Made by a program: the position numbers. A stretch of 41,573 bases of DNA, from the NCBI GenBank assembly GCA_003650545.1, contig QMQO01000007.1:1-41573 (forward strand). Reading direction: 5' to 3'. Positions 33,001 to 36,000 of this stretch are shown here, in pieces (position 1 is the stretch's first letter; each line of letters opens with the position of its first letter). This DNA comes from Candidatus Woesearchaeota archaeon (GTDB lineage Archaea > Nanobdellota > Nanobdellia > Woesearchaeales > B72-G16).

Positions 33001-36000
33001 ACATTTAGACCTTTGTCTTGGGTATAAACAGCATTTAATCGCTTCTTATGTTTTTTTATTCCAAGAAATTTCAGGATAATGTTACAGTCACCAATTCTTA
33101 ACGGAATTTGCCCGTTCTTCTTTTGGAAGTAAGCGAACATGGCTAACATCTTTCTGATTAATTGAAAATCGCGTAACCTGCAAGCACCAAAGCTTGCAAA
33201 GAAAGCATCACGAGCCCAGTAGTCGTCGTAATGTCTTCTCCCTGCAAATATTCCATTTTTACTATAACATAGCCTTAAAGAATAAGATGCTATTTTTTCA
33301 GCTTGCTGAAAGACCCTCACAGTTAGATTTATACATTTTGTGATTTATAATGATTTAGGTATTACAGAATAAATAATCGAAAGTTTTATAATAATAATAG
33401 AAATAAACATCGATATGGATAACCGTGTTAACTGCAGAGAATGTACAAATTTAATTCAGAAAGGTGGCTTGCGTACATATGGCAGATGTAAAGCCAAAGA
33501 CGGACAGTTAATTAAGATTACAGGATTAGTTGAATGTGCTGACTTTGTCAAAAAACAAAAGGAAAAACAAGAGTTCTATGATAAAGGTTATGATATGCCA
33601 GATATTGGCGATAATATAGAAGCAGATTGTGAATAAAAAAAGATAAGGTCACTGATTTCGTACATATACTATATAACGACTCTCTATCTTTACTACAACA
33701 ATTAGTTTAGATATCCAGAAGGATTTTTTTGGTGAAAAGTCTCATATTGAAATCAAATGTGCATCTCGTGTCTCGTGTGTCTAAGATAAATCAAATTATG
33801 TATTAAAAGAAAGATTCTTCTGATCGAAACTGAAAAGTCTCAGAGTACTTACTTCAAACATATAATATAACTTTGTTGTTTTAGTGATCAATCATTTTTT
33901 AGGGTTAAGTCGTGTTTGATAGTTAAACTGCCATGACTTTCATCAGCCACTCAATCACCAAAAGTAACTGGAGCGGGATATTAGCACACTTAAGTCAACA
34001 GTACACTTTTTTAGTTAAATTTTTAAATTGGGATTAATCTTTTCTAATCATGGGCCCGTAGCCTAGCCTGGATAGATAAGGTAAATAGGGCGACAGGACT
34101 TAGTCCCGCTAAAGCCTCCTACTCTAGGTGAAAGCTGTAGATCGAGGGTTCGAATAGAAGAAACTAAAAAATATCTTGTTTCTTTCAACGAAAATCCCTC
34201 CGGGCCCGTTTAATTAAAATGTACAAAATCAAACAACTTCCTGAAGATTTCATTGTAAAAGAGATAAACAACATAACAGTAAAAGATAAAGGCAGATATT
34301 CCTACTGGTTATTAAAGAAAAAGAATCACAACACAATAAGTGCTATACATATTATAGCGAATGCTATAGGAAAACCGCTAAATACTATAGGATATGCAGG
34401 CAATAAAGACAAAAACGCGGTGACAGAACAGATCATTTCTATTAAGAATGTTAACAAGAAGAGAGTTGAGTCTACTCAGTTAAGAAATATTAGTCTTAAA
34501 TTTTTAGGAGTTGGTGATGAACCAGTTGTGATTGGTATGCTTGAAGGTAATTACTTTGAGATTGTTGTTAGAAATATTGAATCAAAACCTTTTATAAAAA
34601 AAGAGTTTATCAACCTTTTTGGTGAACAACGTTTTAGTAAGAAGAACGTTGATATAGGTAAAGCTATAGTGCATGGTTGTTTTGACAAAGCAGCTAAGTT
34701 AATTGCTGAAACAGATAGAGAGTATGGTGCAAAAAAGTTTTATAATGCTAATAAGAATAATCCTATTGCAATGATACGTTTGTTACCTAAAAGCCTAATA
34801 AAGCTTTATGTGCATGCTTATCAATCAAAAATGTGGAATGATATTGCAATAGAGTATATTAAAAATAAAAAAAGAAAAAATTGTAAAATTCCAATTATTG
34901 GTTTTGGAACTAACATCAATAATTATAATAAAGATATTCGAAATATTGTTTTAAAAATAATTAAAAAAGAAAACATAAGTAAAGAAAATTTTATAATAAG
35001 GCAGCTCCCAGAAATTAGTTCTGAAGGTGGAGAGCGTGACCTTTTTGTAAAAGTAAATATAGAAGCAAGCAGACTTGAACATGACGAGATAAATAAAGGA
35101 AAGAAAAAGATTTTTCTTAAGTTTTCATTGCCAAAAGGTAGTTATGCAACTGAGATTATTAGACAGATATTTATTTGAATGTATAAAAAAGTTTAAATAA
35201 TAACAACTTTTCTATTTTAAAAAAAAGGGGGGATTGTTTTGTTTAAAAAAGCGGTGTACATTTTTGGAGCTGTCTGGTTAGCGTTAACAATAACTGCCTG
35301 CAAACCATCTATAACAACAGAGGTTGGTAGGGAGATTGCTATAAATGAATATACAAGAGCAACACAGCTTTATTTTTGTCCTGAAGATGATTGCGAAAAA
35401 GCGATGAATAGTTTTCTTCAACAAGCAAATGAAAGTATACACTGTGCATTGTTTGATCTAGATCTTGAAAGTTTGATTACAACGCTAATAGAGAAAAATA
35501 AAGAAATAGACGTCAAGGTTGTTGTTGACGATAAAAACAAAGAAAATGTTTTGGGTTTGGACTTTGTTAAATTGGATACCAGTTCACAACTAAGCCATAA
35601 TAAATTTTGTGTGGTTGATGGAAAGATGTTGTTTACTGGAAGTACAAACCCAACTTTCAATGGTGTGAATAAAAATAATAACAATCTACTATTGATCTAT
35701 AGCAAAAAGATGGCCTATAACTATGATGCTGAATTTAATGAACTATGGCAAGGTATATTTGGTGGAGGTCCAAAAAATGTTAAAACCAAATTCATAATAA
35801 ACAATGAAGTATATGAGCAATACTTTTGCCCCGAAGATAATTGCAGGAAACATGTTAAAGATGAAATTTTAAAAGCAAAAAAGAGCATCTATTTTATGAC
35901 GTTCTGTTTTACTGATGGAAGTATATCTACAGATATTGCATTCATGTACCATAATAATTCTATTGATATTAAAGGTGTTTTTGAGAAGAACCTAGCGAAC

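Follow-up and report, generated by a model that had tools for sequence, protein, structure and literature searches.

Results

A tRNA-Arg(CCT) gene in five exons

The window, a stretch of 41,573 nt from the genome of a tiny, uncultured Woesearchaeales (DPANN) archaeon, carries at 34052-34208 on the forward strand a tRNA-Arg(CCT) gene, which is divided by four introns into five exons and closely followed by a gene for TruD (Table 1). The anticodon loop of the spliced product, CTCCTAA, has 7 nt with U33, and exon 3 supplies all of it but its last base, which opens exon 4. The variable loop has 5 nt, as in the class I layout, and CCA is not encoded at the 3′ end. Exons and introns differ in G+C content, both at this locus (65% and 32%) and over the 27 confident tRNA genes described below (62% and 39%), with a genome value of 36%. 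A TATA-like motif with a putative promoter function lies upstream, and such a motif was found at -42 to -21 in 10 of the 27 confident tRNA loci versus 0.98% of 20,000 random positions.

Table 1. Features at the tRNA-Arg(CCT) locus (positions within the window).
Feature	Position	Strand	Content or site	Basis
TATA-like promoter motif TTTTTAAA	34020..34027	+	putative function; ends 24 nt before first base of tRNA	read from sequence
Exon 1 (20 nt)	34052..34071	+	acceptor 5′ strand, positions 8-9, D-stem 5′ strand, D-loop to G19	solver parse
Intron 1 (13 nt)	34072..34084	+	D-loop, 19/20	solver; insertion relative to compact genes
Exon 2 (10 nt)	34085..34094	+	A20-A21, D-stem 3′ strand, position 26, positions 27-28	solver and alignment
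Intron 2 (18 nt)	34095..34112	+	anticodon-stem 5′ strand, 28/29	solver
Exon 3 (9 nt)	34113..34121	+	positions 29-37; anticodon CCT at 34118-34120	solver
Intron 3 (11 nt)	34122..34132	+	canonical site, 37/38	solver
Exon 4 (22 nt)	34133..34154	+	position 38, anticodon-stem 3′ strand, variable loop, T-stem 5′ strand, T-loop 54-59	solver and alignment
Intron 4 (40 nt)	34155..34194	+	T-loop, 59/60	solver
Exon 5 (14 nt)	34195..34208	+	T60, T-stem 3′ strand, acceptor 3′ strand, discriminator G	solver and sequence
TruD (tRNA pseudouridine synthase D)	34219..35178	+	neighbour gene, 11 nt after tRNA	ORF; Pfam PF01142, E 4.9e-59

The gene is invisible to standard gene finders because four short introns cut it into five. 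ARAGORN reported no tRNA and Rfam no match at gathering score across the window, and at E≤10 the region 33900-34400 gave no tRNA match, all three Rfam matches belonging to unrelated families. Throughout the genome, which spans 1.64 Mb in an 85% complete assembly of 133 contigs, ARAGORN found four tRNA genes without and seven with -i, while the Rfam model RF00005 gave seven matches over the cut-off and 11 at E≤1. These counts reproduce the 7-11 genes given in the initial annotation, whose description of a hidden tRNA set holds for ARAGORN and Rfam and reaches no further than these two tools.

Support for the four-intron parse

Gene structures were obtained with a solver that applies cloverleaf constraints and permits jumps solely at pairs resembling a bulge-helix-bulge (BHB), so that the agreement of its results with the BHB motif follows in part from its design. 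For 34052-34208 the solver returned three parses, of which the best, with a score of 23.2, has four introns, no stem mismatch and the anticodon CCT. This parse keeps T8, A14, G18G19, U33 and the T-loop TTCGAAT, and its spliced product is read by ARAGORN as Arg(cct). Each of the other two parses has one mismatch; one of them has three introns and a GAA anticodon (20.2) and the second scores 18.3. When the 72-nt interior was shuffled and both ends were kept, 29 of 400 sequences gave any solution and four a mismatch-free one, and none reached 23.2. With four free introns, 70 non-tRNA loci scored 13.3-19.8, 68 of them using four introns, and with five free introns background scores went up to 21.8. 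A permissive prefilter on the T-arm passed 1,338 of 1,940 regions (of 3,558), which made it useless as a filter, and it was dropped; a fast-filter branch for two T-loop introns, which gave 11,892 matches without a motif check, was likewise unused, such genes coming solely from the general solver.

Both the coordinates and the intron number given earlier for Arg(CCT) were borne out by this separately written solver and by a motif-free alignment. The shortest exons, previously put at 8 and 10 nt, have 10 and 9 nt in our parse, with intron 2 at 28/29 and not at 30/31. This boundary is ambiguous because of an AG repeat, along which it slides by 2 nt, and the BHB rule favours 28/29. The boundary of intron 1 slides within a repeated ATAG; in all, those of introns 1, 2 and 4 can be moved by 1-4 nt with an unchanged spliced product. 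Among the sequencing runs containing the stretch, one DNA run, which may be its source, and no RNA run was listed.

Splice motifs of the four introns

The Arg(CCT) introns fit a motif in which a 4-bp central helix separates cut sites in bulges of ~3 nt: every intron ends in a paired tetramer plus 2 nt, with a central helix of 4/4 pairs in introns 1, 2 and 4 and of 3/4 in intron 3. None of the four has the strict hBHBh′ form, in which both flanking helices of at least 2 bp are directly adjacent, and relaxed classes (hBH, HBh′, BHL) fit. In intron 1, the central helix GCCT:AGGT, which includes a G-U pair, is accompanied by an outer helix of 4 bp, giving (h,o,i)=(4,4,1). Intron 2 pairs GGCG with CGCT and contains an inner hairpin GGAC/GTCC without an outer helix, which makes it HBh′-like with (4,0,4). 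The central helix of intron 3 is CTCC:GGTG; here the anticodon stem is the outer helix, an inner helix is missing and the 5′ cut lies inside a loop (BHL-like; (3,3,0)). For intron 4, TTCG (54-57) pairs with CGAA, which is followed by AA, and the 5-bp T-stem is the outer helix (4,5,0), while an internal 8-bp hairpin is offset by 1-3 nt and the 5′ bulge is irregular. When the pre-tRNA was folded to its minimum free energy, precisely these helices of intron 4 appeared, with a 3-nt 3′ bulge at the T-loop helix.

Conserved exons and variable introns in relatives

A motif-free MAFFT alignment with the 76-nt compact Arg(TCT) genes of two genomes of the same order (G036 and G031) placed four insertions where the solver had predicted them; exon 1 aligned without gaps, and a single base separates the CCT anticodon arm from that of these compact genes. 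The exons are conserved in three orthologous Arg(CCT) genes, where the changes seen in the acceptor- and T-stems are compensatory and indicate selection on the cloverleaf. Mature positions 8-50 are identical in the G039 orthologue. By the solver parses, the orthologues in G007 and G039 have an identical spliced anticodon arm and that in G016 departs from it at one compensated stem pair; in G007 this arm is contiguous in the DNA save its last base. The introns of the orthologues vary in number, length and sequence, with two in G039 (18/49 nt), three in G007 (18/69/43 nt) and three in G016 (90/16/96 nt).

Variable introns at the four sites recur in eight other loci, and each site is found again in relatives. 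The site 19/20 was found in five other loci, with D-loop introns there in G039, G007, G016 and G018, and an intron at 28/29 with CGCT before the cut interrupts Arg(TCT) in G027 (33 nt) and G009 (18 nt). Introns at 37/38 and 59/60 recur in several loci; in the three Arg(CCT) orthologues the introns at 37/38 have 49, 69 and 16 nt, and those at 59/60 have 43 nt (G007) and 96 nt (G016).

Genome-wide census of interrupted tRNA genes

Our solver-based census yielded 27 confident tRNA genes, 24 of them interrupted, with 61 introns of 11-148 nt. Introns occur at 59/60 in 19 of the 27 genes and at 37/38 in 14. Once multi-intron genes are resolved, the genome has at least 27-31 tRNA genes, versus seven by the Rfam model. 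Neither ARAGORN nor Rfam nor the census gave a second Arg(CCT) gene, which could, however, be missing from the 85% complete assembly. In a strict adjacency test, 12 of the 61 introns were hBHBh′, 20 had the outer helix only and 11 the inner helix only.

The initial annotation had arrived at the same figures for genes (at least 27), interrupted genes, intron lengths and the frequency of 59/60, and we reproduced the anticodons of all six loci that it named as examples, with agreement in intron sizes and sites where these were compared. Its totals of 54 introns and of 12 genes with an intron at 37/38 were lower than ours, and its range of 1-4 introns per gene is too low, since Asn(GTT) at C1:87423-87609(-) needs at least five.

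The T-loop site 59/60

All 19 introns at 59/60 are followed by T as nucleotide 60. The tetramer two bases before the 3′ cut is CGAA in nine, TGAA in seven and another sequence in three, the central helix has 4/4 pairs in 16 and 3/4 in three, and the T-stem provides an outer helix of at least 3 bp in 18. This agrees with the rule proposed earlier, by which TTCG or TTCA of the loop pairs with YGAA plus 2 nt at the 3′ end of the intron and the T-stem acts as outer helix. The earlier count of 18 outer helices stands, but at a threshold of at least 3 bp, and the central helices divide into 16 and three, not 15 and three. Calling these motifs canonical BHBs was an overstatement: the inner helix abuts the bulge in only four of the 19 (in 16 with an offset of up to 2 nt), and genome-wide only the 12 introns noted above are strict. 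We propose that 59/60 is the commonest site because the universal TTCR contributes one side of the central helix, with the T-stem as outer helix. Local alignment of T-loop intron cores, which covered 18 of the 19 and omitted the intron of 148 nt, gave no support for a spreading intron family, with a mean score of 5.48 versus 4.83 for shuffled sequences; three of 153 pairs lay beyond the 99.9th percentile of the shuffles, the top pair coming from the isoacceptors Ser(GGA) and Ser(CGA).

Splicing enzymes

The genome encodes one tRNA splicing endonuclease, EndA, at C6:38247-38774(-), a protein of 176 aa with PF02778 and PF01974 (E 3.7e-32 for the latter), and the ligase RtcB (PF01139, E 1.7e-137). 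No paralogue of EndA was detected in the genome at E≤10. Residues 5-176 of EndA align without gaps to residues 1-171 of 1a79, the alpha4 enzyme of M. jannaschii, and in alignments with 1a79 and 3iey the Lys-rich insert of N. equitans NEQ205 is absent. Judged by its sequence, the enzyme fits the alpha4 type, with a single alpha unit in the size range of about 170-180 aa, N- and C-terminal domains and no second gene. PF01974 was found in 40 of 41 genomes of the same order, with exactly one match each at E≤0.01, including single-contig genomes rated 99-100% complete; a second subunit, if there is any, would therefore not be a recognisable EndA paralogue.

Discussion

Our analysis revealed a tRNA gene with four introns in a genome in which most tRNA genes are interrupted, and we consider it very probable that 34052-34208(+) is a functional tRNA-Arg(CCT) gene whose transcript is spliced by EndA and joined by RtcB. 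A 157-nt precursor would be transcribed from the TATA-like promoter ~25 nt upstream, and the introns would be removed at 19/20, 28/29, 37/38 and 59/60. At each site, four exon bases ending two before the 5′ cut pair with four intron bases ending two before the 3′ cut, and such a 4-bp exon-intron pairing places both cuts in bulges or loops beside a helix, which corresponds to a strict or relaxed BHB. The single alpha-type EndA would cut these exact bonds in every type of motif, RtcB would join the five exons into a 75-nt cloverleaf, and CCA would then be added. Most tRNA genes of the genome are probably processed in the same way; with 24 of 27 genes interrupted alike, the cell must splice such genes.

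Among the alternatives, the one that survives best accepts the gene as functional and doubts that a single EndA acting on BHB motifs removes all four introns, so that the relaxed motifs at 28/29 and 37/38 might need an unseen partner subunit, a set order of splicing in which the first removals give rise to the motifs of the later ones, or a further nuclease. According to PMC5829648, alpha4-type enzymes cut only strict motifs, and the literature (PMC5829648, PMC3239211) connects relaxed motifs with special loops or with enzymes of the (alpha-beta)2 or epsilon2 type. The scarcity of strict hBHBh′ forms in the census, the EndA without such an insert and the incompleteness of the assembly, from which a second endonuclease subunit could be missing, all fit this alternative. 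Against it, each of the 40 genomes with PF01974 has one match, all four introns obey the rule of four paired bases plus two, and PMC5829648 itself notes alpha4-type EndAs in DPANN alongside much tRNA gene disruption. We regard this explanation as unlikely.

It is less probable still that the gene is real and wrongly parsed, with another number or placement of introns, such as three introns and another anticodon arm, or with shifted boundaries that would yield another tRNA. Alternative parses do exist, three boundaries are ambiguous and intron 2 had earlier been placed elsewhere; however, both alternatives score lower and carry a stem mismatch, every sliding boundary yields one and the same product, and the CCT arm is that of the orthologues, apart from one compensated pair in G016, and one base away from that of compact Arg(TCT). 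We give equally little credence to a decaying pseudogene or relic peppered with insertions that yields no working tRNA. Four interruptions in 157 nt are extreme and some splice motifs are weak, with a 3/4 central helix or missing flanking helices, but the exons are intact, with no stem mismatch and all invariant bases checked by the solver, the orthologues show compensatory changes, the locus has a promoter-like motif, our searches gave no second Arg(CCT) gene, and 24 interrupted genes out of 27 cannot all be dead. Self-splicing group I or group II introns, whose ribozyme cores span hundreds of nucleotides, were ruled out by intron lengths of 11-40 nt and by the lack of any Rfam intron family at E≤10, as was a split or permuted gene by the colinearity of the five exons within 157 nt. 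In Nanoarchaeum equitans and Caldivirga, the pieces of split or permuted tRNA genes, said to have been described by Chan et al. in 2011, are reportedly assembled by the same endonuclease and ligase chemistry. In contrast, the Arg(CCT) exons lie in order in one locus, and neither trans-splicing nor permutation is needed.

Multi-intron tRNA genes are already known from Thermoproteales and Asgard archaea, and what is new here is the lineage and not the kind. In Thermoproteales (Sugahara et al. 2007/2008, via Fujishima and Kanai 2014, PMC4033280), several introns per gene at non-canonical sites are likewise spliced by proteins at strict or relaxed BHBs, and ordinary tRNA finders likewise overlook such genes. 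Three introns in one gene is the highest number in that review, compared with four in Arg(CCT) and at least five in Asn(GTT); the review connects multi-intron genes with (alpha-beta)2 endonucleases that carry a Crenarchaea-specific loop, whereas the genome studied here has one alpha-type EndA without the loop. This genome is also of a mesophilic type, with a G+C content of 36%, and its leading site is 59/60. Asgard archaea resemble it in averaging ~2.2 intervening sequences for each gene, a ratio matched by our 61 in 27 genes, with up to five in one gene; according to the parts of the Asgard study available to us, software overlooks D-arm introns, those of the T-arm lie mostly at canonical motifs, and comparison with compact relatives was motif-free, as in our approach. 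Asgard archaea belong to a different superphylum, their main called sites are the canonical one and the T-arm, and a 59/60 rule does not appear in those parts of the text. The words DPANN, Nanoarchaeota and Woesearchae are absent from the paper.

Within DPANN, alpha4-type EndAs of several lineages accompany a marked rise in tRNA gene disruption, and incomplete tRNA sets were taken to point to unidentified disrupted genes that need manual curation (Kaneta et al. 2018, PMC5829648; Fujishima et al. 2011, PMC3239211). One Woesearchaeota genome was part of the panel of these papers, and the portions of their text that we consulted provide neither a map nor a site spectrum of Woesearchaeota introns, nor intron numbers for single genes. 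They associate DPANN EndAs with an ‘L3’ insert, whereas the EndA studied here lacks the Lys-rich insert of N. equitans. Our literature searches returned no description of a Woesearchaeota tRNA intron map. A recent survey of complete Nanobdellota genomes (bioRxiv 10.64898/2026.05.13.725050) used tRNAscan-SE in archaeal mode, reported 26-54 tRNAs per genome and left tRNA-Trp undetected in 30 of 123 Woesearchaeales genomes; its text, as far as consulted, discusses hidden tRNA genes and proposes split (trans-spliced) genes or loss, without an intron analysis. Our results suggest that multi-intron genes in cis are a simpler cause of undetected tRNAs than either.

A broader reading of these data is possible, and we put it forward only tentatively: Woesearchaeales may process a nearly fully interrupted tRNA set, with more than two introns per gene, mostly relaxed motifs and non-canonical sites, by a plain alpha-type EndA without any described specificity loop, with 59/60 as the main site of intron gain. 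If so, a broad substrate range of EndA would not be tied to subunit architecture or known inserts. Arg(CCT) offers a clear test case for the strict-motif rule of alpha4-type endonucleases, combining a small enzyme with a 157-nt substrate that contains four types of motif. TTCR and the T-stem would form a ready-made half of a splice motif, and whatever hairpin was inserted there could be spliced at once, provided that it ended in YGAA plus 2 nt. Moreover, the ‘missing’ tRNAs of DPANN genomes, for which surveys report incomplete sets and discuss loss or split genes (bioRxiv 2026.05.13.725050; PMC5829648), would be explained without either. Hidden multi-intron genes bear on completeness estimates, on the inference of codon usage and on claims of host dependence. 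Over 40 genomes of the same order, tRNA counts ranged from 0 to 41, which points to an order-wide problem of detection.

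A tRNA-Arg(CCT) gene with four introns

At 34052-34208(+), a stretch of 157 bases opens in the manner of an archaeal tRNA: its G+C-rich acceptor strand of 7 nt is followed by T8, one D-stem strand and a D-loop containing GG. It closes with the 3′ strand of a T-stem, the complementary acceptor strand and a discriminator G. Within the locus, the cloverleaf pieces are set apart by A+T-rich stretches (G+C 65% in exons, 32% in introns). Standard searches did not report the gene: ARAGORN found no tRNA over the whole window, Rfam gave no match over the window at gathering score, and at E<=10 the region 33900-34400 gave three weak matches, all to unrelated families and none to tRNA.

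Our solver threads a standard cloverleaf through a region and permits introns as jumps. The acceptor stem must have 7 bp and the anticodon and T stems 5 bp each, and the D-stem is unconstrained at 13:22. Also required are A14, the D-loop GG, U33 and G53:C61, and the T-loop may depart from TTCRA at no more than one place. Jumps span 10-160 nt, and the four bases ending two before the 5′ cut must pair with the four ending two before the 3′ cut, either at 4/4 positions or, if a helix of 3 bp or more flanks them, at 3/4. Three parses were obtained at the locus. The best scored 23.2 with no stem mismatch (Table), and ARAGORN calls its spliced product tRNA-Arg(cct); the other two, with scores of 20.2 and 18.3 and one mismatch each, were rejected.

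Table. Parts of the tRNA-Arg(CCT) gene in the best solver parse (window positions; introns by tRNA site), and genes added by the second solver pass (contig positions)
Feature	Position or site	Strand	Length	Remarks
Exon 1	34052-34071	+	20 nt	
Intron 1	19/20		13 nt	GCCT:AGGT, 4-bp outer helix, 5′ cut in loop
Exon 2	34085-34094	+	10 nt	
Intron 2	28/29		18 nt	GGCG:CGCT, adjoining inner hairpin, without outer helix
Exon 3	34113-34121	+	9 nt	
Anticodon CCT	34118-34120	+		
Intron 3	37/38		11 nt	CTCC:GGTG (3/4), outer helix is anticodon stem
Exon 4	34133-34154	+	22 nt	
Intron 4	59/60		40 nt	T-loop TTCG:CGAA, outer helix is 5-bp T-stem
Exon 5	34195-34208	+	14 nt	
Cys(GCA)	C4:39459-39625			Second pass
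Ser(GCT)	C49:7083-7305			Second pass
Leu(CAA)	C14:12370-12579	-		Second pass
Asn(GTT)	C1:87423-87609	-		Second pass; at least five introns needed

All four introns end in AA, and none forms, by direct adjacency, the strict bulge-helix-bulge (BHB) motif hBHBh′ with helices flanking both bulges. Folded at minimum free energy (-57.5 kcal/mol), the full-length precursor contains the acceptor stem and, at intron 4, the T-stem and TTCG:CGAA stack with a 3-nt 3′ bulge, while the 5′ side has a 4-nt/3-nt internal loop followed by an 8-bp hairpin. Directly downstream on the same strand, starting 11 nt past the tRNA, lies the gene of a tRNA-modifying enzyme, TruD (tRNA pseudouridine synthase D; PF01142, E 4.9e-59; 34219-35178(+)).

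Chance cloverleaves and comparison with relatives

When the 72-nt interior was shuffled with both ends kept, some solution arose in 29 of 400 sequences and a mismatch-free one in 4 of 400, and the real score was never reached (0/400); by itself, this control gives the parse modest support. Throughout the genome, 70 clear non-tRNA loci of 184-527 nt yielded false cloverleaves with scores of 13.3-19.8, four introns in 68 of them and aberrant T-loops in most, and with five free introns such background reached 21.8. An example is C1:6472-6814 of the source genome; a few background products were even called tRNA by ARAGORN. Since ordinary DNA thus yields cloverleaf-like products once introns are free, comparative evidence is decisive for the Arg(CCT) parse. 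Claims of many-intron tRNA genes in long regions likewise need comparative support, because four free BHB-like introns suffice for a false cloverleaf.

The closest of the 40 relatives searched belong at best to the same order. MAFFT, which is blind to splice motifs, was given the locus together with six interrupted Arg genes and two compact Arg(TCT) genes of 76 nt (from genomes G036 and G031), and placed four insertions in the locus at the four predicted places. Furthermore, the solver resolved Arg(CCT) orthologues in three relatives, with introns of 18 and 49 nt at 19/20 and 37/38 in G039, and of 18, 69 and 43 nt (G007) or 90, 16 and 96 nt (G016) at 19/20, 37/38 and 59/60. Positions 8-50 of the mature tRNA are identical between G039 and the window gene, differences in the acceptor and T stems among the orthologues are compensatory pairs, and the introns vary in length and sequence. 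None of the three orthologues has the 28/29 intron; Arg(TCT) has one at this site, of 33 nt in G027 and of 18 nt in G009, and in both CGCT again precedes the cut. As each of the four sites is used elsewhere in the order, the window gene carries their union.

The 19/20 introns of G039, G007, G016 and G018 differ in length and share the last bases GGGCAA or AGGCAA; in the window, AGGTAA (34079-34084) precedes the same exon start. These common 3′ ends suggest either descent from one old intron or a constraint imposed by pairing with the D-loop.

Genome-wide census of interrupted tRNA genes

Among 12,977 acceptor-pair candidates, 492 passed a 5′-end pattern and G+C filter, and the solver found solutions in 105 regions at 99 loci, with bimodal scores. 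Requiring a score of at least 21.5 and the same anticodon from ARAGORN left 27 confident tRNA genes, with 61 introns of 11-148 nt: three genes have none, five have one, three have two, 14 have three and two have four. The commonest site is 59/60 in the T-loop (19 genes), followed by 37/38 (14 genes), and most remaining introns lie in the D-loop or D-arm, the anticodon stem and the variable region. G+C averages 62% in exons and 39% in introns, and 36% in the genome. A TATA-like motif at -42..-21 precedes 10 of the 27 loci, Arg(CCT) included, versus 0.98% of random positions. The initial annotation had described most tRNA genes as interrupted, chiefly at 59/60, and all six of its example loci were recovered here. 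Its observation is real and its interpretation sound, given the parse, the comparative insertions and the census; from these we infer that Arg(CCT) and the other interrupted genes are spliced.

A second pass over 127 further regions, allowing up to five introns, added at least four genes (Table). Some anticodon-region parses are doubtful, for instance at C10:10140-10294(-), read as a second 'Pro(TGG)', and in the D-arm of Ser(GGA). The prefilters are blind to genes whose acceptor stem is interrupted or whose first intron precedes G19; gene counts are therefore lower bounds and intron counts approximate. Two loci with scores between 20.0 and 20.8, C2:58383-58873 and Met C36:8562-8729, were left out as uncertain. 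The acceptor and T arms are good but the interiors unconvincing at C8:20788-21056(+), with an implausible ATG anticodon, and at C36:8562-8729(-), where the Met(CAT) reading leaves one mismatch and the T-loop is deviant; both are probably further multi-intron tRNA genes. On contig C129, tRNA-Asp(GTC) (1703-1805(+)) and tRNA-Lys(TTT) (1808-1904(+)) are separated by 2 nt; 59/60 is the sole intron site in each, and the two probably form one transcript.

Nucleotide 60 is a T for every one of the 19 introns at 59/60. The four bases that lie two before their 3′ cut are CGAA in nine, TGAA in seven, and CGGA, GGAA and AGAA in one each; we estimate the chance that a fixed random tetramer pairs with TTCG at about 0.02 at this base composition. 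Their outer helix reaches at least 3 bp in 18/19 and the central helix is 4/4 in 16/19; inner helices of 3 bp or more lie directly against the bulge in 4/19, and in 16/19 if up to 2 nt may intervene. Among the full set of 61 introns, 12 motifs are strict and 11 have both flanks with a 3/4 central helix, while 20 have only the outer helix, 11 only the inner and seven only the central helix.

Splicing enzymes

The splicing endonuclease EndA is encoded by a single gene (C6:38247-38774(-), 176 aa, PF02778 and PF01974), and no paralogue was found in the source genome at E<=10. It aligns over its full length with the alpha4 enzyme of M. jannaschii (1a79), with no gap in the printed alignment. The Lys-rich insert described in PMC3239211, 6 residues that separate the catalytic Tyr from the catalytic His in N. 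equitans NEQ205, is missing from this EndA. Exactly one PF01974 match was present in 40 of 41 same-order genomes, including single-contig ones rated 99-100% complete. The closest EndA loci come from records titled Candidatus Woesearchaeota, Nanoarchaeota or Nanoarchaeia. Among those titled Woesearchaeota or Nanoarchaeota fall many others under the title 'uncultured Methanosarcinales archaeon', whose EndAs are 62-72% identical to the one described here; the Methanosarcinales titles look like mislabels.

The RNA ligase RtcB is also present, in a 1008-aa open frame (C10:11502-14324(-)). Its Pfam match falls into two parts, one covering profile positions 1-50 and the other 45-426, with about 1.5 kb between them. 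The gap has the look of an intein or another large insert in this ligase, on which splicing depends.

Relation to other archaea and spread in the order

Multi-intron tRNA genes are an already known kind. A 2014 review (PMC4033280) gives a maximum of three introns for Thermoproteales tRNA genes, and a 2018 paper (PMC5829648) reports alpha4-type EndAs alongside much tRNA gene disruption in DPANN and calls for manual curation of incomplete tRNA sets. The accessible text of a 2026 preprint on Asgard archaea puts the number of intervening sequences per gene at 2.2, with as many as five in a single gene, reports introns that tRNAscan-SE misses, and does not mention DPANN. Another 2026 preprint (bioRxiv 10.64898/2026.05.13.725050) lists 26-54 tRNAs per genome from tRNAscan-SE for 208 complete Nanobdellota genomes; the part consulted leaves missing tRNAs unexplained and contains no intron analysis. 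We found no map of Woesearchaeota tRNA introns in the open literature, figures and supplements aside. New here are the lineage; the extent, with about 90% of resolved genes interrupted and introns exceeding two per gene; the predominance of site 59/60; and the combination of a plain alpha-type endonuclease with motifs that are mostly relaxed.

With the Rfam tRNA model RF00005 at E<=0.001 and stricter search filters, the 40 relatives gave 0 to 41 matches each, and G013, G016, G017 and G020, rated 96-100% complete, only 9-13. As counts are low even in near-complete genomes and range so widely, hidden tRNA sets are common but patchy in the order. In G035, 81% complete, RF00005 gave no match at E<=0.001 among 89 scored candidates, and its tRNA set may be even more fully interrupted than that of the source genome. 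One EndA gene is present in G035 despite the zero count.
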